23,852 nt of DNA from a virus. Lineage: Duplodnaviria > Heunggongvirae > Uroviricota > Caudoviricetes. A model generated the notes under the pieces. That model did not search any database and was not told where the DNA came from. It worked only from the letters and a program-made list of their open reading frames with translations. The first letter of the stretch is position 1. Each line of letters starts with the position of its first letter. The DNA lies in IMG/VR virus record IMGVR_UViG_2585427740_000001; one strand, given 5' to 3'. Shown here one piece after another: positions 4,680 to 23,852 of the stretch. Position numbers and translations under genes: made by a program.

Positions 4680-4977
4680 TGTAATTTCCTTTTACTTTTT
4701 ACAAAGCGTTTAATCATGGCTGATTATCTTTAAGCGTAGTAACAGCCTTGTGCGAAACATGTTACCAAATCGCCATTTCAGTGTATCCGCAGTTAGGCTG
4801 CCACTTCAAGGATTCCTAATTACATGGTACGTAAGCGTAAAATCCCGTTGGTTGTCGGGTAATAACTCTGATCAAATCTCCCTTGTCTTTTGCTCTTACG
4901 TATGCAGCTCTTGTGTATTCAACCCAGGCCTCCAGTTCAGCAATACGCTTACTTCCATCCGAGATAACACCTTCTAC

Positions 4978-5229: not shown

Positions 5230-5447
5230 TTCGAACCTCTCTGTTTACTGATAAGTTCCAGATCCTCCTGGCAACTTGCACAAGTCCGACAACCCTGAAC
5301 GGCCAGGCGTCTTCGTTCATCTATCGGATCGCCACACTCACAACAATGAGTGGCAGATATAGCCTGGTGGTTCAGGCGGCGCATTTTTATTGCTGTGTTG
5401 CGCTGTAATTCTTCAATTTCTGATGCTGAATCAATGATGTCTGCCAT
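5226..5447 (-). CDS. TraR/DksA-family C4 zinc-finger protein (phage-encoded RNA polymerase-binding regulator family)
   Basis: 73-aa ORF with CxxC...CxxC spacing (CCECGDPID...CRTCASC) typical of the TraR/DksA C4 zinc finger. Confidence 0.8.
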   Translation of the reverse strand: MADIIDSASEIEELQRNTAIKMRRLNHQAISATHCCECGDPIDERRRLAVQGCRTCASCQEDLELISKQRGSK

Positions 5448-5545
5448 CTTTCATTAATCCCTGAATTGTTGGTTAATACGCTTGAGGGTGAATGCGAATA
5501 ATAAAAAAGGAGCCTGTAGCTCCCTGATGATTTTGCTTTTCATGT

Positions 5546-5761
5546 TCACCGTTCCTTAAAAACGCCGTTTAACATGCCGATTGCTAGACTTAAATGAGTC
5601 GGTGTGAATCCCATCAGCGTTACCGTTTCGCGGTGCTTCTTCAGTACGCTACGGCAAATGTCATCGACGTTTTTATCCGGAAACTGCTGTCTGGCTTTTT
5701 TGATTTCAGAATTAGCCTGACGGGCAATGCTGCGAAGGGCGTTTTCCTGCTGAGGTGTCAC
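5546..5761 (-). CDS. Hypothetical small protein (71 aa from GTG 5761; alternatively 93 aa from ATG 5827)
   Basis: ORF-track ORF 5546-5827. The GTG at 5761 overlaps the TGA of the upstream 27-aa peptide ORF (GTGA), suggesting coupling. The N-terminal 22 residues of the longer form look like out-of-frame translation of the peptide gene. Confidence 0.5.
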   Translation of the reverse strand: MTPQQENALRSIARQANSEIKKARQQFPDKNVDDICRSVLKKHRETVTLMGFTPTHLSLAIGMLNGVFKER

Positions 5762-5841
5762 TGAACAAGCCCCATGTCGGCAAGCATAAGCACACAGAAT
5801 ATGAAGCCCGCTGCCAGAAAAATGCATTCAGTGGTTGTCAT
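5758..5841 (-). CDS. Candidate 27-aa hydrophobic (single transmembrane) peptide MTTTECIFLAAGFIFCVLMLADMGLVQ
   Basis: ATG overlaps the TGA stop of the upstream 63-aa ORF (ATGA). Hydrophobic core of about 17 residues. Found by hand translation; below ORF-track cutoff. Confidence 0.35.
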   Translation of the reverse strand: MTTTECIFLAAGFIFCVLMLADMGLVQ

Positions 5842-6029
5842 ACCTGGTCTCTCTCATCTGCTTCTGCTTTCGCCACCATCATTTCCAGTTTTTGTGAAAG
5901 GGATGTGGCTAACGTATGAAATTCTTCGTCTGTTTCTACTGGTATTGGCACAAACCTGATTCCAATTTGAGCAAGGCTATGTGCCATCTCGATACTCGTT
6001 CTTAACTCAACAGGAGATGCTTTGTGCAT
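5838..6029 (-). CDS. Hypothetical protein, 63 aa, immediately downstream of exo in the leftward operon
   Basis: ORF with GAGG 6-8 nt upstream of ATG; same strand and spacing as the early-left operon genes. Confidence 0.55.
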   Translation of the reverse strand: MHKASPVELRTSIEMAHSLAQIGIRFVPIPVETDEEFHTLATSLSQKLEMMVAKAEADERDQV

Positions 6030-6180
6030 ACAGCCCCTCGTTTATTATTTATCTCCTCAGCCAGCCGCTGTGCTTTCAGTGGATTTCGGATAACAGAAAG
6101 GCCGGGAAATACCCAGCCTCGCTTTGTAACGGAGTAGACGAAAGTGATTGCGCCTACCCGGATATTATCGTGAGGATGCG

Positions 6181-6861
6181 TCATCGCCATTGCTCCCCAA
6201 ATACAAAACCAATTTCAGCCAGTGCCTCGTCCATTTTTTCGATGAACACCGGCACCATCTCGTCAAAACTCGCCATGTACTTTTCATCCCGCTCAACCAC
6301 GACATAATGCAGTCCTTCACGCTTCATACGCGGGTCATAGTTGGCAAAGTACCAGGCATCTTTTCGTGTCACCCACATGCTGTACTGCACCTGGGCCATG
6401 TAAGCCGACTTTATGGCCTCGAAACCACCGAGCCGGAACTTCATGAAATCCCGGGAGGTAAACGGGCATTTCAGCTCAAGGCCATTGCCGTCACTGCATA
6501 AACCATCGGGAGAGCAGGCGGTGCGCATACTTTCGTCGCGATAGATGATCGGGGATTCAGTAACATTCACGCCGGAAGTGAATTCAAACAGGGTTCTGGC
6601 GTCGTTCTCGTACTGTTTTCCCCATGCCAGCGCCTTAGCATTAACTTCCGGAGCCACACCGGTGCAAACCTCAGCCAGCAGGGTGTGGAAGTAGGACATT
6701 TTCATGTCAGGCCACTTCTTTCCTGAGCGGGGCTTGGCTATCACGTTGTGAACTTCTGAAGCGGTGATGACGCCGAGCCGTAATTTGTGCCATGCATCAT
6801 CCCCCTGTTCGACAGCTCTCACGTCGATCCCGGTACGCTGCAGGATAATGTCCGGTGTCAT
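6181..6861 (-). CDS. exo: Lambda exonuclease (Red-alpha)
   Basis: 226-aa translation ([30 protein letters not shown]...) matches lambda Exo as recalled. Confidence 0.97.
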
Positions 6862-7306
6862 GCTGCCACCTTCTGCTCAGTGGCTTTCTGTTTCAGGAAT
6901 CCAAGAGCTTTCACTGCTTCGGCCTGTGTCAGTTCTGACGATGCGCGAATGTCGCGGCGAAATATCTGGGAACAGAGCGGCAATAAGTCGTCATCCCATG
7001 TTTTGTCCAGGGCAATCAGCAGAGTGTTAATCTCCTGCATGGTTTCATCGTTAACCGGAGTAATGTCGCGTTCCGGCTGACGTTCTGCGGTGTATGCGGT
7101 ATTTTCGACAATGCGCTCGGCTTCATCCTTGTCATAGATACCAGCAAATCCGAAGGCCAGACGGGCACACTGAATCATGGCTTTATGCCGTAACATCCGT
7201 TTGGGATGCGACTGCCACGGCCCCGTAATTTCTCTGCCTTCGCGGGTTTTGAATGGTTCGCGGCGGCATTCATCCATCCATTCGGTAACGCAGATCGGAT
7301 GATTAC
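6858..7306 (-). pseudogene. bet: bet (Red-beta), 5'-truncated: only the C-terminal ~145 codons remain
   Basis: Translation from ...NHPICVTEWMDECRREPFKTREGREITGPWQSHPKRMLRH... to the C-terminus matches lambda Bet as recalled. The N-terminal ~115 codons are absent and the frame runs into ren-derived sequence on the opposite strand. Confidence 0.88.
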
Positions 7307-7426
7307 CGGTTCGCTACCAGGGAAGAACGGGAAGGAAAGGTGAGCACGAATCTGATTTTCAAGGAGTGTCGCCAGAGTGCCGCGATGAAGCGGGTGTTGG
7401 CATTTTATCGCGGCAATTTTCAATAG
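7304..7426 (+). pseudogene. ren: ren 3' fragment (last ~40 codons: YRFATREEREGKVSTNLIFKECRQSAAMKRVLAFYRGNFQ*)
   Basis: Plus-strand frame matches the recalled C-terminus of lambda Ren (...YYRFATREEREGKMSTNLVFKECRQSAAMKRVLAVYGVKR). It begins abruptly at the bet breakpoint. Confidence 0.7.
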
Positions 7427-7463
7427 ACTATGTACATAAAAATATCATTTTTTTAATACATGT

Positions 7464-7655
7464 CTAATTATTGGACGAAATTGGTTTTTGCTTTGGTTTA
7501 GTTAGCCTAGCAATCAAGCCAGAGGCAATAATGATGATCCAAGCAATTTGATGCAATGCTACTCCAATATAAGAACCTTTATAGATAATAAAGGCATAGA
7601 TCGCTAGAAACGAAATAAATATCCATAACGAAAGTTGATAAATTTTGGCGCGCAT
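7464..7655 (-). CDS. Possible small two-helix membrane protein (63 aa) in AT-rich insert
   Basis: ORF with two hydrophobic stretches; no convincing RBS; AT-rich DNA can yield spurious ORFs. Confidence 0.3.
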   Translation of the reverse strand: MRAKIYQLSLWIFISFLAIYAFIIYKGSYIGVALHQIAWIIIIASGLIARLTKPKQKPISSNN

Positions 7656-7911
7656 ATTTAATCCAATCAATCAGAAAGACGAGTAATCATAGAGGTACTA
7701 TCACCCGGGTAACTATTGCTATTATGAACGGATAGGATAGAGGCTTCAATAACATATGCATCAAGTATGATGGAATATGTAGGTGAAAATGACTTGTGTC
7801 AAATTTGTGGAAATGAGTACCATGTTTCTCTGAAATTGATGTCGTTAATGGCTAGTGATAGTGAACTTTTTTACTTTATAATTCCTTTGGTTATAACAAT
7901 AAGGTAAATTT

Positions 7912-8472
7912 ATGAAGAAGATAATATTATTAGCCATGATTATTGGTTCTTTAACAGGTTGCGCTAGTGTGCCACCATTGAATTTTTCAACACCTAACGT
8001 GGGAGTTAGCCAGAAAAAAATAGATGCTGAAATTAAGTCATTAACGGTATCACTTGCTCGTCCAGATGAGCAGAAAGGGGATATCACTGCTGGTATGGAG
8101 GCTATAACTCCAATTTGGCGTGAATCTTTGCAGGAAGCACTCGACCGAATGACTATTTTTCGTGATAGTTCACCAAATACGGTTAGCTTAAATGTTAAAG
8201 TGTTGGCTCTTGACGTTCCTGCTTTTGGTGTTTCAATGACAACTAAAGCAATTGCAAGGTATGAAATAATCAACCGTGCGAATGGTGATATTATATATAC
8301 GCAGGATATTGAGTCTACCGGTACTGTTCCAGCCAGTTACGCATTCTACGGTATTGTTCGAGCACGCGAATCTGTTAATCGCGCGGTGCAAAACAACATA
8401 ACGCAGTTCTTGCAAGCATTAGAAAGTGTTGATCTTTCTCGTCCAATGTTTCCTGTTAGGGTAGCTAAATGA
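7912..8472 (+). CDS. Lipoprotein, 186 aa (signal peptide with lipobox LTGC); function unknown
   Basis: MKKIILLAMIIGSLTGCAS... lipobox; AAGG RBS about 9 nt upstream. Stop overlaps the start of the next gene (ATGA). Confidence 0.8.
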   Translation: MKKIILLAMIIGSLTGCASVPPLNFSTPNVGVSQKKIDAEIKSLTVSLARPDEQKGDITAGMEAITPIWRESLQEALDRMTIFRDSSPNTVSLNVKVLALDVPAFGVSMTTKAIARYEIINRANGDIIYTQDIESTGTVPASYAFYGIVRARESVNRAVQNNITQFLQALESVDLSRPMFPVRVAK

Positions 8473-8921
8473 AGCGATTATTCGTAATTGCTCCACTCTT
8501 AGTGTTGGTTGGATGCGCACAAAATATATCGCCAAATAGTTATTCTGTTGGCTCTGTGGGCATGGTTAATCGAACTATCGCTGGTACAGTTATTAGTGCT
8601 AGGGGGGTTGATATCAGTGGGACTTCCGCGTTAGGCGGGACTGCTGGGGCTGCCGTGGGGGCAACCGCTGGTTCTGCGCTTGGTGGGGGAGTTCGTTCTA
8701 ATATCGTTGGTGCCGTTGGTGGTGCAGTCATTGGTGGTATTGCCGGGGCAGCAATCGAATCTTCAGCAACAAAACAAACAGGCATGGAATATGTTGTCGA
8801 AACTGAGAATGGGAATTTAATGACCATTGTTCAAGGCAAAGATCCGTTATTTACTCAAGGAAGTAAGGTCCTTGTTTTATACGGAAACCCTTCTCGCATA
8901 ATAACAGACCCGCGTCACTAA
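8469..8921 (+). CDS. SlyB/Pcp-like outer-membrane lipoprotein with glycine-zipper segment, 150 aa
   Basis: Lipobox LVGCAQ. Long Gly/Ala-rich zipper (GGTAGAAVGATAGSALGGGVRSNIVGAVGGAVIGGIAGAAIE) and a C-terminal region resembling SlyB as recalled. Translationally coupled to the upstream lipoprotein. Confidence 0.8.
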   Translation: MKRLFVIAPLLVLVGCAQNISPNSYSVGSVGMVNRTIAGTVISARGVDISGTSALGGTAGAAVGATAGSALGGGVRSNIVGAVGGAVIGGIAGAAIESSATKQTGMEYVVETENGNLMTIVQGKDPLFTQGSKVLVLYGNPSRIITDPRH

Positions 8922-9111
8922 CATACCTTTTGATTTTGTAAAATCAATTCGTAATAATAAAGTCATCGGAGCTTGAACAACTCCGGTGACTTCTGCGCTA
9001 AACGGGGACGTTTATGCGCACATACAATCCAAACTCTCTTCTCCCTTCACAGATGCAGAAATGCACCTGCGATTTTTTGCATCCAGCGTCTGACCTCTGC
9101 GGAGGTGAAGC

Positions 9112-9567
9112 GTGAACCTACCACAAGATGGCATCAAACTGCATCGCGGTAACTTCACCGCTATCGGCCAGCAGATCCAGCCTTATCTGGAGGACGGAAA
9201 ATGCTTTCGCATGGTGCTTAAACCGTGGCGTGAGAAACGCAGTCTTTCCCAGAATGCACTCAGCCACATGTGGTACAGCGAAATCAGTGAATACCTCATC
9301 AGCAGGGGGAAATCGTTCGCTACCGCAGCATGGGTAAAAGATGCTCTCAAACACACATACCTCGGTTATGAAACCAAGGACCTGGTTGATGTCGTAACCG
9401 GCGAAATCACTACTATCCAGTCGTTACGCCATACCTCCGATCTTGATACCGGAGAGATGTATATCTTCCTGTGTAAGGTTGAAGCCTGGGCGGTGAATAT
9501 TGGCTGCCACCTGACTATTCCGCAGAGCTGCGAGTTCCAGCAGCTCCGCGACAAACAGGAGGCGTAA
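9112..9567 (+). CDS. ybcN: NinB/YbcN-family DNA-binding protein
   Basis: 151-aa ORF from GTG with GGAGGTGA RBS. Translation matches DLP12 YbcN as recalled; sits in the NinB position of the nin region. Confidence 0.85.
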
Positions 9568-9737
9568 TGGCTACACCGCTTATTCGTGTCATGAACGGAC
9601 ACATCTACAGAGTACCAAATCGTCGTAAGCGTAAACCGGAGCTGAAGCCTTCCGAAATACCAACACTGCTCGGATATACCGCCAGCCTGGTTGATAAAAA
9701 ATGGTTGCGACTGGCAGCAAGGAGGAGTCATGGCTGA
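9567..9737 (+). CDS. ninE: NinE-family protein (56 aa)
   Basis: Hand translation [59 protein letters not shown] overlaps the ybcN stop (TAATG). Confidence 0.7.
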   Translation: MATPLIRVMNGHIYRVPNRRKRKPELKPSEIPTLLGYTASLVDKKWLRLAARRSHG

Positions 9738-10020
9738 TTTGAGAAAAGCAGCGCGTGGTCGGGAATGCCAGGTAAGAATCCCTGGCGTATGTAATGGCAA
9801 CCCTGAAACGTCTGTACTGGCACATATCCGGCTGACTGGATTGTGCGGCACCGGTACGAAACCGCCAGACCTGATTGCCACCATTGCATGTTCTGCCTGC
9901 CACGACGAAATCGACCGCCGCACACATTTTGTCGATGCTGCATATGCAAAAGAATGCGCGCTGGAAGGTATGGCGAGAACACAGGTTATCTGGCTGAAAG
10001 AGGGGGTTATTAAGGCGTGA
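9730..10020 (+). CDS. ybcO: YbcO-family protein (DUF1364, putative nuclease), 96 aa
   Basis: ORF-track ORF 9691-10020; likely start [14 protein letters not shown]... at ATG 9730 with AGGAGG upstream. Cys/His-rich motif. Matches DLP12 YbcO as recalled. Confidence 0.8.
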
Positions 10021-10379
10021 ATACCTACAGCATCACATTACCCTGGCCTCCGAGCAATAATCGCTATTACCGCCATAATCGCGGGCGCACACACATCAGC
10101 GCAGAAGGGCAGGCATACCGCGATAACGTCACCCGAATCATTAAAAACGCAATGCTGGATATCGGCCTGGCTATGCCAGTGAAAATCCGTATTGAGTGCC
10201 ACATGCCGGATCGCCGTCGCCGTGACCTGGATAATCTGCAAAAAGCCGCTTTTGACGCACTCACCAAAGCAGGTTTCTGGCTGGATGATGCTCAGGTCGT
10301 TGATTACCGCGTTGTGAAGATGCCTGTTACCAAAGGTGGGAGGCTGGAACTGACCATCACCGAAATGGGGAATGAATGA
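10017..10379 (+). CDS. rusA: RusA Holliday-junction resolvase
   Basis: 120-aa translation ([26 protein letters not shown]...) matches RusA as recalled. Confidence 0.95.
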
Positions 10380-10516
10380 TGTTTGAGTTTAATATGGCAG
10401 AACTTCTTCGCCACCGCTGGATGCGCCTGCGCTTATATCGTTTCCCCAGTTCTGTTTTGACCGATTACCGAATACTGAGGAATTACGCCAAAACCCTGAC
10501 AGGAGCAGGAGTATGA
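10376..10516 (+). CDS. ylcG: YlcG-family small protein (46 aa)
   Basis: Hand translation [49 protein letters not shown] overlaps the rusA stop. Confidence 0.6.
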
Positions 10517-10601
10517 AGTCAGAGATAACAATCAACTAATACTGTTTTATTGATTTTTGCTTGTAATTGGCGTTCTGGTCTGATTTTTGTGGAGTAAGTT
10601 G

Positions 10602-10985
10602 ATGCGTGATATTCAGATGGTTCTTGAGCGTTGGGGAGCGTGGGCGGCTAATAATCATGAAGATGTGACCTGGTCGTCCATTGCCGCCGGTTTTAAGGGA
10701 TTAATTACTTCAAAAGTAAAATCTCGCCCGCAATGTTGTGACGATGACGCGATGATCATTTGCGGGTGCATGGCCCGTCTGAAAAAGAACAACAGCGATT
10801 TGCACGATTTATTAGTAGATTATTATGTAGTCGGTATGACATTCATGTCACTGGCAGGTAAGCATTGCTGCTCTGATGGTTATATCGGGAAAAGGTTACA
10901 GAAGGCTGAGGGTATAATTGAAGGGATGTTAATGGCATTAGATATCCGGTTAGAGATGGATATCGTTGTTAATAACTCTAATTAA
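10602..10985 (+). CDS. Q: Late-gene antiterminator Q (QuuD-like, phage 82/21 type)
   Basis: 127 aa from ATG 10602 with GGAG RBS ([24 protein letters not shown]...). Matches DLP12 QuuD as recalled. Confidence 0.9.
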
Positions 10986-11102
10986 TATGCCAATTGTTTA
11001 CTAAAAATTATTAAAAATGGGGCGTTGAGACGCCCCCAAAAATAAAGGGTAATATATAACAGAAGGTTTATATAGTTAGAAGCAAGGTTGTGCTCCTAAA
11101 GG

Positions 11103-11165
11103 AAGTGGCTTGAGGGAGCCACTTATATGTTGGGGAGGCAAAGCCTCCCGCAACATATCTTTTAG
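11103..11165 (+). terminator. Two tandem stem-loops; the second (11125-11158, ~15-bp stem) is followed by CTTTTAG; candidate tR' of the late operon
   Basis: Inverted repeats AAGTGGCT/AGCCACTT and ATATGTTGGGGAGGC/GCCTCCCGCAACATAT read directly. Lies about 140 nt downstream of Q and just past the 3' end of the convergent porin gene. Confidence 0.5.
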
Positions 11166-11173
11166 TAATCAAA

Positions 11174-12256
11174 TTAGAACTGGTAAACCATACCTACAGC
11201 AACGATATCATCGGTAGCAACGCCAGATGCTTTCGTGAAATCGCTCTTATCAATCAGGTTGATTTTGTAATCAACAAAAGTGGACATATTTTTGTTGAAG
11301 TAATAGGTTGCACCTACATCAATATATTCAACCAGGTCCTGATCACCCCACGCACCCAAGTCTTTTCCTTTAGATTGCAGGTAAGCAACGGACGGACGCA
11401 GACCGAAGTCGAACTGATATTGTGCAACTACTTCGAAGTTTTGTGCTTTGTTGGCAATATGGTTATTACCAAAAACAGTCATGTTCTGGGTTTCAGAATA
11501 GGTGGTAGCCAGATAGATGTTGTTCGCATCATATTTCAGACCAGCTGCCCATACTTCAGCATTTTGACCAGATGCATTCAGGCTGTTGTTACCGTAGATA
11601 ACCTGATTATTAGTGCGGTCAGATTTAGCATAGGTTGCACCTACACCGAATCCTTCATACTCATAAGTAGTGGAGAAACCGAAACCATCACCATTAGCTT
11701 CAGTTACGTCAGTGCGGTCATTTTTACCCTGATACTGAGCAGCAAAGTTCAGACCATCAACCAGACCAAAGAAGTCATTGTTACGATAAGTTGCAACACC
11801 TGTGGTGCGACCAGTCATGAATACATCTGTTTGGGTCCAGGTATCGCCACCGAATTCTGGCAGAACGTCGGTCCATGCACCAATATCGTATGCTACACCG
11901 TAGTTACGGCCATAATCGATGGAGCCGTAGTCACCGAATTTCAGGCCAGCGAAGGCAAGACGGGTTTTATCTTTGGAGGAACCTTGAGATTCAGCGCGGT
12001 TGCCTTTGAATTCATATTCCCACTGACCGAAACCAGTCAGTTGATCGTTGATTTGGGTTTCACCTTTGAAGCCAAGACGGGCATAAGTAGTATCACCATC
12101 ATCTGCATCATTAGAGGAGAAGTAGTGCTTAGCATTAACTTTCCCGTACAGATCCAGCTTGTTACTGTCTTTATTATAAATTTCAGCTGCCTGAGCAGAC
12201 ATCGCCATCAGTACTGATGCAGCTACAGCAGAAATTGCCACTGTTAATTTTTTCAT
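11174..12256 (-). CDS. nmpC: General porin of the OmpC/OmpF/NmpC(Lc) family
   Basis: 360 aa from [23 protein letters not shown] (signal peptide) to the C-terminal ...VGMVYQF. Resembles NmpC/Lc as recalled. The ORF-track ORF extends 20 codons further upstream, judged spurious. Confidence 0.92.
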
Positions 12257-12682
12257 CGTGAGCCCTTTTTTTGAACTATTATTAAAAAATGATGTCACTG
12301 CGCGATAAATATTCATCTAATCAATGTGATTATTTCAAGATGTAAGTTTTGGTTTCTCATTTGATTTGTGAAGTAGATCTCTATTTTTATCTGAACTTTT
12401 TCTATCGAATCCTATTCATGGCTCTTGGCTGAATAAAAATAAATCTATTAGCCAATTTATATTAATGGCTGTTATTTATAAGTGCTCTATAATTTGAAGA
12501 TTCAATTTAAACCAGCTAAAAATAACGCTGGAAATTATTTGTTGGTTATTTGTTGAGATTTGCTTATGTATTTGTAGTGGTGTTTTCAATACTCGGTAGC
12601 ATTCTCGCAAATATCATTTAGTGGTTTACGTACGTAAAAAATTGGTTATGCTGTTAAGAGTGGTTACTTCGTCACACAGCTT

Positions 12683-12716
12683 AAACCCGCCGTCGAGCGG
12701 GTTTTTCCATTTTTTG
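12683..12716 (+). terminator. Intrinsic terminator-like hairpin (AAACCCGC-CGTCGA-GCGGGTTT) followed by TTCCATTTTTT
   Basis: Perfect 8-bp GC-rich stem and T-tract read directly. Lies in the AT-rich region between the porin start and S. Confidence 0.5.
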
Positions 12717-12843
12717 AGTCTCGATATTAGCTGATAACCCAATACCTGAGTTATTCACTGACTCCGAGTCTGTTACGTTTCTGCTTTTTTGCGATACGTT
12801 GTATTCCCTCAATTTACACCCGCTTTGTCTGCGAGGTGGGGTT

Positions 12844-13059
12844 ATGAAATCCATGGATAAGTTAACAACGGGTGTCGCCTATGGCACCTCAGCAGGTAGT
12901 GCCGGTTACTGGTTTTTACAGCTGCTCGATAAAGTCACGCCCTCACAGTGGGCAGCAATAGGTGTGCTGGGTAGCCTGGTATTTGGCCTGCTGACGTACC
13001 TGACAAACCTTTATTTCAAGATTAAAGAAGATAAGCGCAAGGCTGCGAGAGGTGAATAA
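12844..13059 (+). CDS. S: Class II holin (phage 21 S-type pinholin) with dual-start motif MKSMDK
   Basis: Translation [71 protein letters not shown] resembles S21 as recalled. Two Met codons three codons apart; two TM segments. Confidence 0.9.
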
Positions 13060-13556
13060 TGCCTCCATCATTACGAAAAGCCGTTGCTGCTGCTATTGGT
13101 GGCGGAGCAATTGCTATAGCATCAGTGTTAATTACTGGCCCAAGTGGTAACGATGGTCTGGAAGGTGTCAGCTACGTACCATACAAAGATATCGTTGGCG
13201 TATGGACTGTATGTCACGGACACACCGGAAAAGACATCATGCTCGGTAAAACGTATACCAAAGCAGAATGCAAAGCACTCTTGAATAAAGACCTTGCCAC
13301 TGTCGCCAGACAAATTAACCCGTACATCAAAGTCGATATACCGGAAACAACGCGCGGCGCTCTTTACTCATTCGTTTACAACGTGGGTGCTGGCAATTTC
13401 AGAACATCGACGCTTCTTCGCAAAATAAACCAGGGCGATATCAAAGGCGCATGTGATCAGCTACGTCGCTGGACATATGCTGGCGGTAAGCAATGGAAAG
13501 GTCTCATGACTCGTCGTGAGATTGAGCGTGAAATCTGTTTGTGGGGTCAGCAATGA
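13059..13556 (+). CDS. R: SAR endolysin (T4-lysozyme-like muramidase with N-terminal signal-anchor-release domain)
   Basis: 165 aa with a Gly/Ala-rich weakly hydrophobic N-terminus ([20 protein letters not shown]) followed by a lysozyme-like core. Start overlaps the holin stop. Confidence 0.92.
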
Positions 13557-14014
13557 ACAGAGTAACCGCGATTATCTCCGCTCTGGTTATCTGCATCATC
13601 GTCTACCTGTCATGGGCTGTTAATCATTACCGTGATAACGCCATTACCTACAAAGCCCAGCGCGACAAAAATGCCAGAGAACTGAAGCTGGCGAACGCGG
13701 CAATTACTGACATGCAGATGCGTCAGCGTGATGTTGCTGCGCTCGATGCAAAATACACGAAGGAGTTAGCTGATGCGAAAGCTGAAAATGATGCTCTGCG
13801 TGATGATGTTGCCGCTGGTCGTCGTCGGTTGCACATCAAAGCAGTCTGTCAGTCAGTGCGTGAAGCCACCACCGCCTCCGGCGTGGATAATGCAGCCTCC
13901 CCCCGACTGGCAGACACCGCTGAACGGGATTATTTCACCCTCAGAGAGAGGCTGATCACTATGCAAAAACAACTGGAAGGAACCCAGAAGTATATTAATG
14001 AGCAGTGCAGATAG
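13553..14014 (+). CDS. Rz: Rz inner-membrane spanin subunit
   Basis: 153 aa, N-terminal TM then coiled coil. ATG overlaps the R stop (ATGA). Confidence 0.85.
13773..13955 (+). CDS. Rz1: Rz1 outer-membrane lipoprotein spanin subunit, embedded in the +1 frame of Rz
   Basis: 60 aa with lipobox VVGCTS and proline-rich segment (PPPPPAW...PPPDW). AGGAG RBS 8 nt upstream. Lies entirely inside Rz. Confidence 0.8.
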
Positions 14015-14045
14015 AGTTGCCCATATCGATGGGCAACTCATGCAA

Positions 14046-14339
14046 TTATTGTGAGCAATACACACGCGCTTCCAGCGGAGTATAAATGCCTAAAGTAATA
14101 AAACCGAGCAATCCATTTACGAATGTTTGCTGGGTTTCTGTTTTAACAACATTTTCTGCGCCGCCACAAATTTTGGCTGCATCGACAGTTTTCTTCTGCC
14201 CAATTCCAGAAACGAAGAAATGATGGGTGATGGTTTCCTTTGGTGCTACTGCTGCCGGTTTGTTTTGAACAGTAAACGTCTGTTGAGCACATCCTGTAAT
14301 AAGCAGGGCCAGCGCAGTAGCGAGTAGCATTTTTTTCAT
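14046..14339 (-). CDS. bor: Bor lipoprotein (serum-resistance-associated)
   Basis: 97-aa translation MKKMLLATALALLITGCAQQTFTVQNKPAAVAPKETITHHFFVSGIGQKK... matches lambda Bor as recalled. Confidence 0.92.
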   Translation of the reverse strand: MKKMLLATALALLITGCAQQTFTVQNKPAAVAPKETITHHFFVSGIGQKKTVDAAKICGGAENVVKTETQQTFVNGLLGFITLGIYTPLEARVYCSQ

Positions 14340-14629
14340 GGTGTTATTCCCGATGCTTTTTGAAGTTCGCAGAATCGTATGTGTAGAAAATTAAACAAAC
14401 CCTAAACAATGAGTTGAAATTTCATATTGTTAATATTTATTAATGTATGTCAGGTGCGATGAATCGTCATTGTATTCCCGGATTAACTATGTCCACAGCC
14501 CTGACGGGGAACTTCTCTGCGGGAGTGTCCGGGAATAATTAAAAACGATGCACACAGGGTTTAGCGCGTACACGTATTGCATTATGCCAACGCCCCGGTG
14601 CTGACACGGAAGAAACCGGACGTTATGAT

Positions 14630-15040
14630 TTAGCGTGGAAAGATTTGTGTAGTGTTCTGAATGCTCTCAGTAAATAGTAATGAATTATCAAAGGTATAGT
14701 AATATCTTTTATGTTCATGGATATTTGTAACCCATCGGAAAACTCCTGCTTTAGCAAGATTTTCCCTGTATTGCTGAAATGTGATTTCTCTTGATTTCAA
14801 CCTATCATAGGACGTTTCTATAAGATGCGTGTTTCTTGAGAATTTAACATTTACAACCTTTTTAAGTCCTTTTATTAACACGGTGTTATCGTTTTCTAAC
14901 ACGATGTGAATATTATCTGTGGCTAGATAGTAAATATAATGTGAGACGTTGTGACGTTTTAGTTCAGAATAAAACAATTCACAGTTTAAATCTTTTCGCA
15001 CTTGATCGAATATTTCTTTAAAAATGGCAACCTGAGCCAT
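14630..15040 (-). CDS. ybcV: YbcV-family protein (DUF1398)
   Basis: 136 aa from [24 protein letters not shown]... matching DLP12 YbcV as recalled. The ORF-track ORF extends to 15163; the upstream 41 codons are judged non-coding. Confidence 0.8.
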
Positions 15041-15325
15041 TGGTAAAACCTTCCATGTGATACGAGGGCGCGTAGTTTGCATTATCGTTTTTATCGTTTC
15101 AATCTGGTCTGACCTCTTTGTGTTTTGTTGATGATTTATGTCAAATATTAGGAATGTTTTCACTTAATAGTATTGGTTGCGTAACAAAGTGCGGTCCTGC
15201 TGGCATTCTGGAGGGAAATACAACCGACAGATGTATGTAAGGCCAACGTGCTCAAATCTTCATACAGAAAGATTTGAAGTAATATTTTAACCGCTAGATG
15301 AAGAGCAAGCGCATGGAGCGACAAA

Positions 15326-15532
15326 ATGAATAAAGAACAATCTGCTGATGATCCCTCCGTGGATCTGATTCGTGTAAAAAATATGCTTAATAGCACCATT
15401 TCTATGAGTTACCCTGATGTTGTAATTGCATGTATAGAACATAAGGTGTCTCTGGAAGCATTCAGAGCAATTGAGGCAGCGTTGGTGAAGCACGATAATA
15501 ATATGAAGGATTATTCCCTGGTGGTTGACTGA
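15326..15532 (+). CDS. ybcW: YbcW-family small protein (68 aa)
   Basis: Translation [40 protein letters not shown]... matches YbcW as recalled. Confidence 0.75.
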
Positions 15533-15696
15533 TCACCATAACTGCTAATCATTCAAACTATTTAGCCTGTGACAGAGCCAACACGCAGTCTGTCACTGTC
15601 AGGAAAGTGGTAAAACTGCAACTCAATTACTGCAATGCCCTCGTAATTAAGTGAATTTACAATATCGTCCTGTTCGGAGGGAAGAACGCGGGATGT

Positions 15697-15891
15697 TCAT
15701 TCTTCATCACTTTTAATTGATGTATATGCTCTCTTTTCTGACGTTAGTCTCCGACGGCAGGCTTCAATGACCCAGGCTGAGAAATTCCCGGACCCTTTTT
15801 GCTCAAGAGCGATGTTAATTTGTTCAATCATTTGGTTAGGAAAGCGGATGTTGCGGGTTGTTGTTCTGCGGGTTCTGTTCTTCGTTGACAT
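15697..15891 (-). CDS. ylcI: YlcI-family protein (DUF3950), 64 aa
   Basis: Translation MSTKNRTRRTTTRNIRFPNQMIEQINIALEQKGSGNFSAWVIEACRRRL... matches YlcI as recalled. Confidence 0.75.
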   Translation of the reverse strand: MSTKNRTRRTTTRNIRFPNQMIEQINIALEQKGSGNFSAWVIEACRRRLTSEKRAYTSIKSDEE

Positions 15892-16059
15892 GAGGTTGCC
15901 CCGTATTCAGTGTCGCTGATTTGTATTGTCTGAAGTTGTTTTTACGTTAAGTTGATGCAGATCAATTAATACGATACCTGCGTCATAATTGATTATTTGA
16001 CGTGGTTTGATGGCGTAGATGCACGTTGTGACATGTAGATGATAATTATTATCATTTTT

Positions 16060-16279
16060 CGGGTCCTTTCCGGCGATCCGACAGGTTACGGGGCGGCGAC
16101 CTCGCGGGTTTTCGCTATTTATGAAAATTTTCCGGTTTAAGGCGTTTCCGTTCTTCTTCGTCATAACTTAATGTTTTTATTTAAAATACCCTCTGAAAAG
16201 AAAGGAAGCGACAGGTGCTGAAAGCGAGCTTTTTGGCCTCTGTCGTTTCCTTTCTCTGTTTTTGTCCGTGGAATGAACA
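16060..16279. other. cos: cos site: cosN with 12-nt cohesive end GGGCGGCGACCT at 16091-16102, followed by cosB (terminase small-subunit binding region) up to the nu1 start
   Basis: Sequence ...CGACAGGTTACG GGGCGGCGACCT CGCGGGTTTTCGCTATTTATGAAAATTTTCCGGTTTAAGGCG... matches the recalled lambda genome ends joined at cos. Confidence 0.88.
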
Positions 16280-16795
16280 ATGGAAGTCAACAAAAAGCAG
16301 CTGGCTGACATTTTCGGTGCGAGTATCCGTACCATTCAGAACTGGCAGGAACAGGGAATGCCCGTTCTGCGAGGCGGTGGCAAGGGTAATGAGGTGCTTT
16401 ATGACTCTGCCGCCGTCATAAAATGGTATGCCGAAAGGGATGCTGAAATTGAGAACGAAAAGCTGCGCCGGGAGGTTGAAGAACTGCGGCAGGCCAGCGA
16501 GGCAGATCTCCAGCCAGGGACTATTGAGTACGAACGCCATCGACTTACGCGTGCGCAGGCCGACGCACAGGAACTGAAGAATGCCAGAGACTCCGCTGAA
16601 GTGGTGGAAACCGCATTCTGTACTTTCGTGTTGTCGCGGATCGCAGGTGAAATTGCCAGTATTCTCGACGGGATCCCCCTGTCGGTGCAGCGGCGTTTTC
16701 CGGAACTGGAAAACCGACATGTTGATTTCCTGAAACGGGATATCATCAAAGCCATGAACAAAGCAGCCGCGCTGGATGAACTGATACCGTTATGA
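16280..16795 (+). CDS. nu1: Terminase small subunit Nu1, C-terminally altered (171 aa; the last ~10 residues of lambda Nu1 are replaced by a single L and a stop)
   Basis: Translation MEVNKKQLADIFGASIRTIQNWQEQGMPVLRGGGKGNEVLYDSAAVIKWYAERD... matches lambda Nu1 through ...AALDELIP, then diverges at about 16789. Confidence 0.9.
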   Translation: MEVNKKQLADIFGASIRTIQNWQEQGMPVLRGGGKGNEVLYDSAAVIKWYAERDAEIENEKLRREVEELRQASEADLQPGTIEYERHRLTRAQADAQELKNARDSAEVVETAFCTFVLSRIAGEIASILDGIPLSVQRRFPELENRHVDFLKRDIIKAMNKAAALDELIPL

Positions 16796-16817
16796 GTTTA
16801 CGGATACGCTGGGGCTG

Positions 16818-17222
16818 GTGACGTCATTCAGCTATGCAGGAGACAAGAATCGCCAGCTGACCCATTACAGCGATACCCGCTGGCATGAAGATTCCGTTCG
16901 TAACCGCTGGTTCAGCGTAATGGCGGGGCCGTCTGTGCGCGTGAATGAATGGTTCAGCGCGTATGCGATGGCGGGTGTGGCTTACAGCCGTGTGTCGACT
17001 TTCTCCGGGGATTATCTCCGCGTAACTGACAACAAGGGGAAAACGCACGACGTGCTGACCGGAAGTGATGACGGTCGCCACAGCAACACGTCTCTGGCGT
17101 GGGGAGCTGGCGTGCAGTTTAACCCGACCGAATCCGTGGCCATTGATATTGCTTATGAAGGCTCCGGCAGTGGCGACTGGCGCACTGACGGTTTCATCGT
17201 GGGTGTCGGTTATAAGTTCTGA
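16818..17222 (+). pseudogene. lom: lom (Ail/Lom/PagC-family outer-membrane protein), 3' fragment lacking signal peptide and proper start
   Basis: C-terminal ...SVMAGP...AYAMAGVA...IAYEGSGSGDWRTDGFIVGVGYKF matches the lambda Lom C-terminus as recalled. Upstream sequence is nu1; no ATG or signal peptide. Confidence 0.85.
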
Positions 17223-17250
17223 TTAGCCAGGTAACACAGTGTTATGACAG

Positions 17251-17276
17251 CCCGCCGGTTCAGGCGGGCTTTTTTG
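17251..17276 (+). terminator. Rho-independent terminator (GCCCGCC-GGTTCAG-GCGGGC followed by TTTTTT)
   Basis: Perfect GC-rich hairpin plus T6, read directly. Immediately downstream of the lom fragment. Confidence 0.85.
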
Positions 17277-17286
17277 TGGGGTGAAT

Positions 17287-20250
17287 ATGGCAGTAAAGAT
17301 TTCAGGTGTACTGAAAGACGGCACAGGAAAACCGGTACAGAACTGCACAATCCAGCTGAAAGCAAAACGTAACAGCACCGCGGTGGTGGTGAACACGCTG
17401 GCCTCAGAAAATCCGGATGAAGCCGGGCGTTACAGCATGGACGTTGAGTACGGTCAGTACAGCGTTATTCTGTTGGTGGAAGGATTCCCGCCGTCACATG
17501 CCGGGACCATCACCGTGTATGAAGATTCCCGACCCGGTACGCTGAATGATTTTCTCGGTGCCATGACGGAGGATGATGCCCGTCCGGAGGCTCTGCGCCG
17601 TTTTGAACTGATGGTGGAAGAGGTGGCGCGTAACGCGTCCGCAGTGGCACAGAACACGGCAGCCGCGAAGAAGTCAGCCAGTGATGCCAGCACATCTGCC
17701 AGTGAGGCGGCAACTCATACAACCGATGCTGCAGGCTCAGCTCGTGCCGCCAGCACGTCAGCCGGACAGGCTGCATCATCTGCTCAGTCAGCATCTTCCA
17801 GCGCAGGAACGGCATCAACAAAGGCCAGTGAAGCATCGAAAAGTGCTGCTGCTGCAGAGTCCTCAAAAAGCGCGGCAGCTACCAGTGCCGCTGCGGCGAA
17901 AACGTCAGAAACGAATGCGGCAGCGTCACAACAATCAGCAGCCACTTCTGCATCCGCCGCGACCACGAAGGCGTCAGAAGCTGCCACCTCAGCCCGGGAT
18001 GCGGCGGCCTCAAAAGAGGCGGCAAAATCATCAGAAACGAGCGCAGCCTCGAGCGCCAGTAGTGCAGCCTCCTCGGCAACAGCGGCAGGAAATTCCGCGA
18101 AGGCGGCAAAAACGTCCGAGACGAACGCTAAGTCTTCTGAGACGGCAGCAGCACAGAGTGCCTCCGCAGCAGCAGACTCAAAAACAGCGGCTGCCTCATC
18201 TGCCAGCGCCGCGTCAACAAATGCCGGGCAGGCCTCAGCCAGTGCCACCGCTGCCGGAAAGTCGGCAGAAAGCGCCGCATCATCCGCTTCAACAGCCACA
18301 ACGAAGGCTGGCGAAGCCACTGAACAGGCCACGGCAGCAGCGAGGTCAGCTTCCGCAGCGAAGACATCCGAAACGAACGCGAAAGCGTCGGAAACCAGCG
18401 CAGAATCCTCAAAAACGGCTGCCGCATCGTCAGCCAGTTCGGCGGCGTCATCGGCATCATCGGCGTCTGCTTCAAAAGATGAGGCGACCAGACAGGCGTC
18501 AGCAGCGAAGGGCAGCGCCACGACGGCATCCACGAAGGCGACAGAGGCAGCTGGCAGTGCGACGGCGGCAGCTCAGAGCAAAAGTACGGCGGAATCCGCG
18601 GCAACGCGCGCCGAGACAGCAGCAAAACGGGCAGAGGATATTGCATCCGCCGTGGCGCTTGAGGATGCGAGCACGACGAAAAAGGGGATAGTACAGCTCA
18701 GCAGTGCGACTAACAGCACTTCCGAGTCACTGGCGGCAACGCCAAAAGCCGTTAAGGCCGCGTATGAGCTGGCTAACGGGAAATACACCGCACAGGATGC
18801 AACGACAGCACAGAAAGGGATAGTTCAGCTTAGCAACGCGACCAACAGCACATCTGAAATGCTGGCGGCAACGCCAAAGTCGGTAAAGGCAGCCTATGAC
18901 CTTGCTAACGGGAAATATACTGCTCAGGACGCTACGACAGCACAAAAAGGAATTGTCCAGCTCAGTAGTGCAACCAACAGCGCATCTGAAACGCTTGCCG
19001 CGACACCGAAAGCAGTGAAAGCAGCTAATGATAATGCGAATGGTCGGGTACCTTCTGCCCGTAAGGTGAATGGTAAGGCGCTTTCAGCGGATATAACACT
19101 GACGCCGAAAGATATTGGTACGCTTAACTCAACAACAATGTCATTCAGCGGTGGTGCTGGTTGGTTCAAATTAGCAACGGTAACCATGCCACAGGCGAGT
19201 TCTGTTGTTTCAATTACGTTGATTGGTGGCGCGGGATTTAACGTGGGGTCACCTCAACAGGCAGGTATATCTGAACTTGTTTTGCGTGCAGGTAATGGTA
19301 ATCCGAAGGGGATTACTGGTGCTTTATGGCAGCGCACATCGACAGGGTTTACAAATTTTGCCTGGGTCAATACATCTGGTGATACTTACGATATTTACGT
19401 TGCAATCGGAAATTATGCGACTGGTGTAAATATTCAATGGGATTATACCAGTAATGCCAGCGTGACGATTCATACGTCACCAGCATATTCTGCTAATAAG
19501 CCGGAAGGGTTAACGGACGGTACAGTTTATTCACTCTATACGCCATCAGAGCAGTTTTATCCGCCTGGCGCACCAATCCCGTGGCCATCAGATACCGTTC
19601 CGTCTGGCTATGCCCTGATGCAGGGGCAGACTTTTGACAAATCTGCATACCCGAAACTTGCAGCCGCTTATCCGTCAGCCGTGATCCCTGATATGCGTGG
19701 CTGGACGATTAAGGGCAACCCCGCCAGTGGTCGTGCCGTATTGTCTCAGGAACAGGACGGCATTAAATCGCACACCCACAGCGCCAGCGCATCCAGTACG
19801 GATTTGGGGACGAAAAACACATCGTCGTTTGATTACGGAACCAAATCCACGAATAACACCGGGGCGCATACCCATAGTATTAGCGGGACTGCAAATAGTG
19901 CCGGTGCGCACCAACACAAGAGTTCCGGTGCATTTGGTGGCACGAACACGAGCATTTTCCCTAATGGTTATACCGCGATTTCAAATCTAAGCGCGGGGAT
20001 TATGAGCACAACAAGCGGTAGTGGCCAGACTCGTAATGCAGGGAAGACATCATCAGATGGTGCTCATACCCACTCGCTGTCCGGCACTGCTGCAAGCGCA
20101 GGCGCACATGCACATACTGTCGGTATTGGTGCTCATACGCACTCCGTTGCGATTGGCTCACACGGACACACCATCACCGTTAACGCTGCTGGTAACGCGG
20201 AAAACACCGTCAAAAACATCGCATTTAACTATATTGTGAGGCTTGCATAA
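17287..20250 (+). CDS. stf: Side tail fibre protein Stf (about 987 aa from ATG 17287), with long Ala/Ser/Thr-rich low-complexity region, three ~43-aa tandem repeats and a His-rich C-terminal domain
   Basis: N-terminus [30 protein letters not shown]... and C-terminus ...[11 protein letters not shown] match lambda Stf as recalled. ORF-track ORF begins 2 codons upstream at GTG. Confidence 0.92.
18673..19050 (+). repeat. Three tandem ~129-132-nt repeats inside stf (unit encodes [19 protein letters not shown](S/M)[12 protein letters not shown](E/D)[11 protein letters not shown])
   Basis: Repeated peptide and nucleotide blocks starting near 18673, 18802 and 18934, read directly. Confidence 0.8.
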
Positions 20251-20831
20251 TGGCATTCAGAATGAGTGAACAACCACGGACCATAAAAATTTATAATCTG
20301 CTGGCCGGAACTAATGAATTTATTGGTGAAGGTGATGCATATATTCCGCCTCATACAGGTCTGCCAGCAAACAGTACCGATATTGCACCGCCAGATATTC
20401 CGGCTGGCTTCGTGGCTGTTTTCAACAGTGATGAGTCATCGTGGCATCTTGTTGAAGACCATCGGGGTAAAACAGTTTATGACGTGGCATCAGGGGACGC
20501 GTTATTTATTTCTGAACTCGGCTCATTACCGGAAAATGTTACCTGGTTATCCCCGGAAGGGGAGTTTCAGAAGTGGAACGGCACAGCCTGGGTGAAGGAT
20601 ACGGAAGCAGAAAAACTGTTCCGGATCCGGGAGGTGGAAGAAACAAAAAACAGCCTGATGCAGGTAGCCAGTGAGCATATAGCGCCGCTTCAGGATGCTG
20701 TGGATCTGGAGATCGCAACGGAGGAAGAAACCTTGTTGCTGGAAGCCTGGAAAAAGTATCGGGTATTGCTGAACCGTGTTGATACGTCAACTGCACAGGA
20801 TATTGAATGGCCAGTAGCACCTATAGGGTAA
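20250..20831 (+). CDS. tfa: Tail fibre assembly chaperone Tfa
   Basis: 193-aa translation [51 protein letters not shown]... matches lambda Tfa as recalled. ATG overlaps the stf stop. Confidence 0.95.
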
Positions 20832-21689: not shown

Positions 21690-21751
21690 CGGTCTCGAAA
21701 ACCGGAGTAGGGGCAACTCTACCGGGGGTTCAAATCCCCCTCTCTCCGCCA
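21690..21751 (+). other. 3' fragment (~62 nt) of tRNA-Ser(CGA): anticodon stem-loop, variable arm, T-arm and acceptor 3' end with CCA; 5' half absent
   Basis: CGGTCTCGAAAACCGGAGTAGGGGCAACTCTACCGGGGGTTCAAATCCCCCTCTCTCCGCCA matches the recalled 3' portion of E. coli serU-type tRNA-Ser. The preceding sequence cannot form the acceptor/D arms. Confidence 0.75.
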
Positions 21752-22335
21752 CTTTATCAATGACTTATCTCCCGACTTCCCGCCTTGCTTTTCCTAAACA
21801 GAACAATCGTAGAATATTCTTGAAGGGTTAGATCGTCACTGTTTTCTGTTCGATACTGTGACATTCAGCACTTGATTCGCTATGGATCTGACAGGAAGGT
21901 TTTGAGCGAAAATTTGCAGTTATTCAGTCGTTTTCTTATCGGTCACCATTATTCTTTTAGACATTGATCCTACAAAGCTGCCGCAAAGTTGGTGGTGGGA
22001 ACTGAAGTTGCGTAGAGAAGGGGTCAATACCCGGAGGCAAACATGGGCTGGCAAAAGTGTAGCGGTATTAGGCGCAGCTATTTAGCCTAGTTATGTTTTA
22101 TGAAAACTTGATATCATATAAGTGTCTTACTTATTGGCTGTAAATAAGTTTTTCCTAAGGAATTGTTTCTTGAGTATCATTTGTAACTGTAACGGAATTT
22201 ATAATCCTTTGCTTTATTGTTACGGTATTTTTTATCACACCCTATTTTTTATGTGGTTTTTTATACTGAAGTTTGGCAAAGTGAACTTTATATGCATATA
22301 CTTCATCCTGGTTTCAGTTAAGTTGGGTGGATGAT

Positions 22336-23079
22336 ATGGCAACTACATGTTCAGTTATATTGATTTTGGAGTCCTTTGATGTTTATTTCGGAAAAGAGAG
22401 TGTGTTTCTGGAGAGAGGTTCATCTGTACTTGTCGACTCTAGCTCTAGAGATTTTTTCCTGACATATCCTGAAAGAGTGATAGTGGCGGATTTTGGCGCT
22501 GAGTTTATTAGTCGCTATTTGAAAGCTAATAACTTAAGGGATATTTCTGATTGTAGGGAATATCCATCTTATTTAAAAATAAACTTTGCTGACTTCAGTT
22601 TAATTAAAGGATTAATTAGTTGGGCTAATCACTGTGCTGAATACATAGAAATTTTTGATGAGTCTATTGCTTTTACATGTCTCTCTGCATTTTCTTCTGA
22701 AAAACAATTTGGAGTATTTCTGTTTGAATGTTTGAAAAGCACAGGGGCTAAAGTTAAAACGATTATTCATACGGATTTATCTGCACCATGGCGTCTTAAG
22801 GATATATCATCAAGATTATATCTCAGCGAAAGTTTACTAAAGAGGAAATTGAAAGAAGAGGGGGTATCATTCAGTAAGATCATACTTGATGAGAGGATGC
22901 AAATGGCTGAATATTTACTCAGCACTCGTTGTTATCCTATTAGTAAAGTAGCTAAGGTCTGTGGTTATGCCAGTGTCTCATACTTTACTTATGTATTTAG
23001 ACGTTATTTTGGTGTTTCTCCAAGTCAATACTCTCAGAGCAGTTCAGAAAGTAAAATTCTTACTCACCAGGGAATCTGA
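22336..23079 (+). CDS. AraC/XylS-family transcriptional regulator (AppY/EnvY-like), about 247 aa
   Basis: C-terminal AraC-type HTH signature (...WRLKDISSRLYLSESLLKRKLKEEGVSFSKIILDERMQMAEYLL...KVCGYASVSYFTYVFRRYFGVSPSQY). Low-GC gene; in-frame GTG 3 codons upstream is the ORF-track start. Confidence 0.85.
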   Translation: MATTCSVILILESFDVYFGKESVFLERGSSVLVDSSSRDFFLTYPERVIVADFGAEFISRYLKANNLRDISDCREYPSYLKINFADFSLIKGLISWANHCAEYIEIFDESIAFTCLSAFSSEKQFGVFLFECLKSTGAKVKTIIHTDLSAPWRLKDISSRLYLSESLLKRKLKEEGVSFSKIILDERMQMAEYLLSTRCYPISKVAKVCGYASVSYFTYVFRRYFGVSPSQYSQSSSESKILTHQGI

Positions 23080-23590
23080 TCATTGTTCTTGCCCCCTTAT
23101 TTCCAGACAGGGGGTGTATCTTAAGTTAACGTTACCCGCTGACGTCGATATTCTCGCGGAGAGCGATAACCCAACGCACTGTGCGGATGGTTTTCATTGT
23201 AATGTTCGATCGCCACTGCAAGATTATGCAATGCCGTTCTTACATTCGGTTTCGGCATGAACGCGATGTAGTCTTCCTTCATCGTTTTCACGAACCTTTC
23301 TGCCATTCCATTACTCTGAGGACTGCTGATTGCCGTTGTGCAGGGCTCCAGATTCAACTCTCTGGCGAACTGCCATGTTTCATGCGCTCTATACGCTGAA
23401 CCGTTATCTGTCAGCCACTGGATGGACTGTTCCGGTACTTTATCGCCAAAGCGTTTTTCTATCGCTCCTAACATGACATCCTGCACTGTCGCTTTATCGT
23501 AACCTCCCGTGCTTGCGGCCCAGTCTATGGCTTCACGATCGCAACAGTCCAGGGCGAACGTAACACGCAGTTTTGAATCGCCACGGGTTT
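23077..23590 (-). mobile_element. IS2-like (IS3 family) element fragment: terminal region plus 3' part of the transposase orfB
   Basis: Terminal sequence TTGCCCCCTTATTTCCAGACA resembles the recalled IS2 end. The orfB C-terminal translation matches IS2 InsD as recalled (...TVQDVMLGA...WLTDNGS.Y...[12 protein letters not shown]). Confidence 0.7.
23121..23585 (-). pseudogene. IS2-like transposase orfB, C-terminal ~155 codons only (5' part removed)
   Basis: ORF-track ORF 23121-23486 continues open upstream to a TAA at about 23586 (…[34 protein letters not shown]…). No orfA or N-terminal orfB upstream on this strand. Confidence 0.75.
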
Positions 23591-23630
23591 AACAGACACC
23601 TCAGAGTCATTTAAGATGGCTTAAAGAGAG

Positions 23631-23852
23631 GTGCCCATGAGCGGTAAGCGTTATCCCGAAGAGTTTAAAACTGAAGCAGTCAAACAGGTTGTTGATCGCG
23701 GTTATTCTGTTGCCAGCGTTGCAACACGTCTCGATATCACCACCCACAGCCTTTATGCCTGGATAAAGAAGTACGGTCCGGATTACTCCACTTTTTCATC
23801 AAGCCAATCCGCCCACCACTGCATCATTTCTCTGCGCTTATCGAGATACTGA
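23631..23852 (+). CDS. IS3-family transposase OrfA-like HTH protein (N-terminal part typical; C-terminus atypical, possibly disrupted)
   Basis: MSGKRYPEEFKTEAVKQVVDRGYSVASVATRLDITTHSLYAWIKKYGPD resembles IS3-family OrfA HTH domains. RBS AGAGAGGTGCCC-ATG. Opposite orientation to the IS2-like orfB fragment. Confidence 0.6.
   Translation: MPMSGKRYPEEFKTEAVKQVVDRGYSVASVATRLDITTHSLYAWIKKYGPDYSTFSSSQSAHHCIISLRLSRY

Follow-up and report, generated by a model that had tools for sequence, protein, structure and literature searches.

The window analysed here, by which we mean the whole 23,852-nt stretch of the Caudoviricetes record IMGVR_UViG_2585427740_000001, contains a lambda-like prophage whose gene order runs attL, int, xis; exo and a truncated bet; a truncated ren; a DLP12-like nin region, quuD and a porin gene; essD-rrrD-rzpD, bor, ybcV, ybcW and ylcI; nohD (a truncated nu1), the 3' part of lom ('lom), stf and tfa; and then foreign DNA. 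Placed on the lambda map this order reads att-int-xis, exo-bet', 'ren, Rz-bor-cos-nu1(1-700) and lom(3')-stf-tfa, with window positions 13553-16090 corresponding to lambda 45966-48502. At 99.97% identity the window matches the E. coli PEC1009 chromosome (wild bird, Pakistan), and that of EC416 (pig, Japan) is nearly identical to it. In both finished genomes (loci L001 and L003) the element is flanked by ybhC on one side and by ybhB-bioA on the other, which is the lambda attachment site. EC416 carries an extra IS2 downstream of tfa (L001 23570-24798), and its prophage is otherwise the same as that of PEC1009. Feature coordinates are given in Table 1.

Table 1. Features of the cryptic prophage, in window coordinates.
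Feature	Position	Strand	Remarks
attL core GCTTTTTTATACTAA	1331-1345	+	adjoins ybhC; int and xis next; matches lambda 27724 onward
Second deletion junction, bet'/'ren	7293-7310		lambda 32476 joined to ~40445; microhomology ATTAC
cos region	16000-16279	+	cosN nick position 16090/16091; cosB upstream of nu1
nu1' ORF (nohD in PGAP)	16280-16795	+	171 codons/aa
Deletion junction, nu1'/'lom	16784-16789		ATACCG in both parents, single copy retained
Local hotspot sequence in nu1			GATACCGGGG
'lom pseudogene, Ail/Lom barrel protein	16785-17222	+	C-terminal 145 codons; from Pfam, alignment and PGAP
Terminator-like hairpin and T run	17249-17280	+	3' of lom, position as in lambda
stf, side tail fibre gene	17287-20250	+	987 aa, open; N-terminal domain, fibre repeats, collar domain
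tfa, tail fibre assembly gene	20250-20831	+	193 aa, open; Pfam domain match

The nu1-derived ORF encodes residues 1-170 of lambda Nu1 with one Leu-to-Ile substitution and then reads Leu and TGA, in agreement with a preliminary description of this DNA, which had Nu1 follow lambda to about codon 170 before a Leu-stop. Lambda 1-700 corresponds to window 16091-16789 at 99.3% nucleotide identity, and the similarity ends at window 16789, which is lambda nt 700 in codon 170. The product covers the Phage_Nu1 profile (PF07471) over all of its positions (1-164 of 164; E = 7.5e-101, 335 bits compared with a curated Pfam cut-off of 30), and the part replaced by Leu-stop is the last 11 residues of Nu1 (171-181), which lie beyond the profile. 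The C-terminal region of Nu1 is the binding region for the large terminase subunit, gpA. With this region truncated and no A gene in the window, the predicted product does not qualify as a functional small subunit of the lambda terminase; without the 11 residues and a gene for gpA the element cannot form terminase, an argument that draws in part on established terminase biology.

The second remnant, 'lom, matches positions 55-199 of the 199-position Ail_Lom profile (PF06316, E = 1.2e-87), begins at codon 55 of the 199-aa Lom of phage Turner, equivalent to codon 62 of 206 in lambda Lom, and differs from Turner Lom at 3 of its 145 residues, with neither stops nor frameshifts. It does not amount to a complete Ail/Lom barrel protein, since a start codon at the homology boundary, the signal peptide and the first strands are all missing; it also has no promoter of its own, and PGAP labels it in the two finished genomes as Ail/Lom "missing N-terminus". 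The preliminary description had correctly seen that the fragment is without start and signal peptide, which is borne out by the profile positions present. It had also let the Lom-type sequence begin at 16818 with about 130 residues, and this needs correction, since 16818 is merely the first in-frame GTG within 'lom and both Pfam and the alignment start at 16785. The break was likewise said to lie in the middle of lom and is found roughly at its first third.

A three-way alignment of the join reads ...GAACTGATACCG|GGGTTG in nu1, ...GTGAAATACCG|TTATGAG in lom of the Turner type and ...GAACTGATACCGTTATGAG in the window. The parental copies of ATACCG lie in nu1 codons 168-170 (lambda 695-700) and in lom codons 54-56 of the Turner-type allele; with lambda's own lom allele the junction homology shrinks to TACCG. 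A short identical sequence at both parental breakpoints, kept as one copy in the product, is the pattern of a microhomology-mediated deletion, and a 6-bp match by itself is no proof of the joining mechanism. The reading frames of nu1 and lom differ, and therefore of the nu1'-'lom fusion announced earlier the DNA junction stands, while a fusion protein does not exist. In the alignment, phage sequence lies on both sides of the join and no IS, att core or other foreign DNA is present at it; the IS end expected at a junction made by IS-mediated adjacent deletion is absent here and from every junction type of the hotspot described below.

Both flanks of the junction are colinear with lambda and with phage Turner. 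In lambda coordinates nu1 extends to nt 700 and lom resumes after nt 19152, so that the lost interval is lambda 701-19152, or 18,452 bp (18,435 bp in Turner coordinates). The missing genes are A, W, B, C, D, E, FI, FII, Z, U, V, G, T, H, M, L, K, I, J and the 5' end of lom, and alignment to lambda returned no match to lambda 701-19457 (A to J) anywhere in the window, in keeping with the earlier proposal that one deletion removed terminase A, portal, capsid, tail shaft and J. We therefore favor a single illegitimate, microhomology-mediated deletion of about 18.4 kb in a prophage at att-lambda, to which we assign a probability of roughly 0.85. According to this reading, a lambda-like prophage would have inserted at att-lambda, between ybhC and ybhB/bioA, and ATACCG in nu1 would then have been joined to ATACCG in lom by RecA-independent microhomology-mediated deletion, taking out about 18.4 kb and leaving cos, Nu1 minus its last 11 residues, a promoterless 'lom and a full-length stf-tfa. 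The parent is reconstructed from lambda and Turner, an undeleted sibling of the same prophage not having been recovered. As an event this is ordinary prophage decay of a known kind.

The junction could instead be a false join made during assembly, with the head and tail genes actually present, and the preliminary description had named a misassembly as what would overturn it. We consider the chance of this negligible, because the 601-bp region around the junction is present at 100% identity in the complete genomes of EC416 and PEC1009, two independently sequenced chromosomes from different countries and hosts, in the ybhC...ybhB context; because an assembler would not be led astray by a repeat of a mere 6 bp; and because the truncated 171-aa Nu1 is found, exact, on 81 public contigs. 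Nothing in favor of a false join was found. The exact nu1/lom junction occurs in 2 of 5,426 complete genomes, which together with the 81 contigs fits a single event inherited in one lineage.

Another reading is that the two halves, int...nu1 and lom-stf-tfa, come from different prophages and were brought together by a chromosomal deletion or inversion. E. coli strains do carry several lambdoid prophages, the 601-bp query matches at 2 and 4 places in the two finished genomes, and identity to Turner is lower on the lom side (97%) than on the nu1 side (99%), but a single lambdoid phage normally shows mosaic differences this large. The element, moreover, runs from ybhC to ybhB/bioA, its gene order and orientation are those of one lambda prophage (gal side-int...J side-bio), and chromosomal genes do not separate the two halves; we regard a chimeric origin as very improbable.

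The deletion would seem to be recent, because 'lom is free of stops and frameshifts and so close to Turner Lom, and because the 987 codons of stf have stayed open despite long Ala/Ser-rich repeats; the sole basis of this argument is the absence of decay. The stf product aligns over residues 1-987 with side tail fibre genes of functional phages, e.g. mEp332, ev099 and Turner. The fibre genes had been called intact, a description that holds for an open, full-length stf and tfa, and intact here means no more than that; their persistence may reflect too little time for decay. Within the tfa coding sequence there is also a full-length match to Rfam IS009 (20593-20791, + strand; 218 bits compared with a gathering score of 117).

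The junction in nu1 is one of two in this element. The bet'/'ren join, at about 7305-7310, deletes the immunity and replication region in its entirety, with the loss of gam, kil, cIII, N, rexAB, cI, cro, cII, O and P, and lambda 32477-40439 (gam to P) has no match in the window. Its right-hand parent site, TATTAC|CGGTT, resembles the hotspot sequence of nu1. No second att core (attR) was found between window position 1331 and ybhB (L003 was searched to ybhB), so that Int and Xis cannot excise the element. The cos region differs from that of the functional phage Turner by two substitutions in 16000-16279. Having an att site, int and xis at one end and genes in prophage order, with the lytic functions lost, the element is a cryptic lambdoid prophage; because of the A-J deletion, the bet'/'ren deletion and the absence of an attR core it is unable to repress, replicate, excise or build particles, and is fixed in place.

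The DNA beyond tfa is of a different character. ARAGORN reports no tRNA in the window, and a fragment of about 62 nt resembling the 3' half of a tRNA-Ser(CGA) of the serU type, ending in CCGCCA, lies at about 21690-21751 (+ strand) in AT-rich foreign DNA between tfa and a gene for an AraC-family regulator (22327-23079). This fragment is probably the att remnant of another integrative element. Remnants of the IS3 family occupy 23121-23852.

Several known cryptic prophages resemble the one described here. K-12 Qin (nohA-truncated stfQ) is like the window in retaining cos, a lambda-type nu1 and the distal fibre genes while lacking all head and tail-shaft genes. Its left break at lambda 719 lies 19 nt from that of the window, the junction shares TA, and the nu1-derived ORF, nohA, runs into foreign sequence to give 189 aa; the Qin prophage differs in that its right end is inside stf, lom is lost, the integration site is ydfJ and the junction is old and widespread. 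DLP12 (nohD-aaaD-tfaD) has a nearly identical Q-lysis-bor-cos-nu1 block, for which PGAP uses the DLP12 gene names. In the DLP12 of K-12 the morphogenesis genes are presumably deleted in such a way that nu1 is complete and a 5' piece of A is left, and in E92, with a junction of the DLP12 kind, nu1 and 88 codons of A are kept and the break at lambda 956 joins lom codon 17. The closest events in kind are those in TUM9812 and E24377A, both with the left end at lambda 697. TUM9812 has its prophage at att-lambda, with a left end 3 nt from that of the window, but there nu1 is joined through 2 bp of microhomology to the 3' end of J, lom is intact and the backbone is another one; in E24377A nu1 is joined to lom codon 127 (lambda numbering) with 0 bp of microhomology, again on another prophage backbone. 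The junctions share with short-homology illegitimate recombination as described in E. coli and lambda the few shared bases, the single copy kept and the absence of an IS. To our knowledge the classical descriptions of that process include no preferred 4-nt endpoint in nu1, and none was found in a literature search either.

Three independent junctions ending at most 3 nt apart led us to survey IMG/VR for others. The shared site, lambda nt 697-700 (window 16786-16789), falls in nu1 codons 169-170 and reads GATA|CC|G; the start codon of A, at 711, follows some 11-14 nt downstream. An exhaustive scan of IMG/VR, in which the nu1 18-mer with its last base at lambda 697 had to precede a base other than C, recovered 15 loci, with 11 deletion junctions of at least 8 kinds. 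For a like-for-like comparison within IMG/VR we used an 18-mer, six free positions and then any base but the reference base. This design recovered 19 loci for lambda 697-703, compared with 0, 1 and 0 for control windows at 535-541, 661-667 and 901-907, the lone control hit being a 1-nt indel at a contig end and not a junction. The control anchor 18-mers are about equally conserved (98-113 copies compared with 111 in the locus sample). The adjacent stretch 704-730 gave no loci, a known junction at 720 escaping that scan by chance.

The survey, based on one collection (IMG/VR) and four finished genomes (hotspot loci L006, L007, L009-L021, L034, L107 and L184-L190), yields 15-16 distinct junctions, as two of the 16 sequences possibly represent one event in diverged alleles. 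Their left ends are at 697 (nine), 698 (one), 699 (five) and 700 (one, the window); outside these 16 are the K-12 Qin junction at 719 and the one at 720. The right ends, in contrast to left ends confined to 4 nt, cover about 20 kb: A 514 and 594; Z 46; J 102, 214, 330, 602, 823 and 1017; lom 62 and 127; stf 50; and the stf/tfa region. Microhomology ranges from 0 to 6 bp with a mean of about 3 (TA, ATA, GATA, TAC, TACC or ATACCG), and all junctions but one include the TA at 696-697. The right-hand partners share with the nu1 site only TA, TACC or similar short matches and no longer motif, and a comparison with att and gix/hix-type sites, as would be used by Int at a secondary site or by a Din-type invertase, led to no recognised recombinase site in them. 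The left end would thus appear to be non-random, with lambda 697-700 as a preferred deletion start, and a local DNA lesion or stall probably precedes joining to a downstream microhomology containing TA(CC).

Another view is provided by a sample anchored 20-45 nt before the hotspot and not selected for breaks. About 25 of its 114 loci break within 5 kb, at scattered positions, and 3 of about 24 breakpoints within 5 kb hit the 4-nt site, where we would expect about 0.02 (Poisson p ~1e-6, our own estimate). Deletions also begin within nu1 (lambda 261, 427, 583 and 623) and within A (880-2500). In metagenome_contigs and genome_contigs the control scans gave only chance 18-mer matches from unrelated taxa, and the evidence for the hotspot comes from IMG/VR and the finished genomes. 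A literature search for a described nu1 deletion hotspot returned nothing specific, which is weak evidence of novelty.

Two further, smaller clusters of independent deletion ends were seen at lambda 2244-2271 in gene A (GGTACGGATACCGCG) and 3467-3469 in gene B (GGGTATCCTGG), in loci L049, L059, L107, L132 and L180, the last of which holds a lambda 2267-3467 segment bounded by both clusters. In nine loci (e.g. L033, L046, L081) a variant allele of gene A departs from lambda right after nt 731, and a mosaic module boundary is therefore located about 30 nt to the right of the deletion hotspot.

A number of candidate causes were tried and rejected. A hairpin or cruciform is not indicated, as inverted repeats spanning 690-710 are absent and the DNA fold gave a z-score of 0.49. 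GATACC is not a sufficient motif, since its copies at 1905, 3307, 3498 and 5204 show no events at comparable coverage. Across IMG/VR, no IS insertion was found at 697-703. Restriction at CCNGG does not hold as a general explanation, with 3 of 17 sites in lambda 1-3600 near breakpoints (425, 2354 and 3469) and right ends not at such sites. Simple selection for keeping nu1 is contradicted by the deletions that start inside the gene. What looked like a hotspot of right ends at lambda 11712 proved to be a diverged stretch of gene H and not a set of deletions.

A refinement of the microhomology-mediated deletion, and no replacement for it, would be a targeted break: a sequence-specific nick, cut or stall at nu1 GATA|CC|G whose end is joined to any downstream TA(CC) microhomology. 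Candidate agents are terminase nicking with relaxed specificity at a cosN-like TAC(C)G|GGG, a cut of the ↓CCNGG or CC↓SGG type at CCGGG, or insertion and later excision of a mobile element. The narrow left and wide right distributions of ends and the empty interval 701-730 (leaving aside the junctions at 719 and 720) are what such a break would produce, and further endpoint clusters exist in genes A and B. The cosN sequence TTACG|GGGCGG seems to resemble the hotspot ATACCG|GGGTTG. We take it that at the CCGGG of 698-702 enzymes of the ↓CCNGG type cut after 697 and those of the CC↓SGG type after 699, and these predicted cuts coincide with the two main classes of left ends. Against this, most CCNGG sites in lambda 1-3600 have no breakpoint nearby and right ends avoid CCNGG, neither an IS nor another insert is present at 697-703 in IMG/VR, no structure is predicted at the site, and terminase action at +700 is argued from sequence resemblance. 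We therefore treat a targeted break as a possibility with the odds against it.

The clustering could alternatively reflect selection, in that deletions keeping Nu1 1-169 and losing the ribosome-binding site and start codon of A are favored: a tail-less Nu1 would bind cosB and multimerise without recruiting gpA, thereby poisoning the terminase of superinfecting lambdoid phages. Codon 169 ends at position 697, and the GGGG at 700-703 lies just upstream of the A start. Every junction type with a locatable nu1 start has an open nu1-derived ORF with a short random tail, the large subunit is bound by the Nu1 C-terminal region, and interference with the small terminase subunit is a known anti-phage strategy, that of the PICI Rpp proteins, which target lambda TerS. 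The distribution of deletions, on the other hand, shows no cliff, as those that start elsewhere in nu1 and in A also persist; ends at about 650-696 should be tolerated, yet the control window 661-667 is empty; and expression would require late transcription, but pR, N and cI are lost from the prophage. Selection of this kind appears improbable to us. The broader proposition, that nu1 contains a 4-bp fragile or targeted site at which morphogenesis genes are recurrently lost in a directed manner, either because a sequence-specific lesion has gone unrecognised or because a tail-less Nu1 is selected for, with the window as one of at least 15 events, we hold to be speculative and on the whole unlikely.

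At the level of one locus, the deletion shows how a dead lambda-like prophage became fixed in one E. coli lineage. It retains cos, genes for lysis, bor, a porin and a side tail fibre cassette of full length that could be picked up by infecting phages, and a role of the retained genes as a reservoir for infecting lambdoid phages via homologous recombination is plausible, because experiments have shown that lambda exchanges homologous DNA with cryptic prophages in their stf-tfa or cos-nu1 regions. The part that merits follow-up is the hotspot, a recurrent and sharply defined deletion start in lambda-type nu1. Since many independent deletions begin within the same 4 nt, the degradation of prophages in E. 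coli is partly predictable at the level of single nucleotides, and a fragile or targeted site, if real, would represent a recurrent, directed route of prophage domestication as opposed to random decay.
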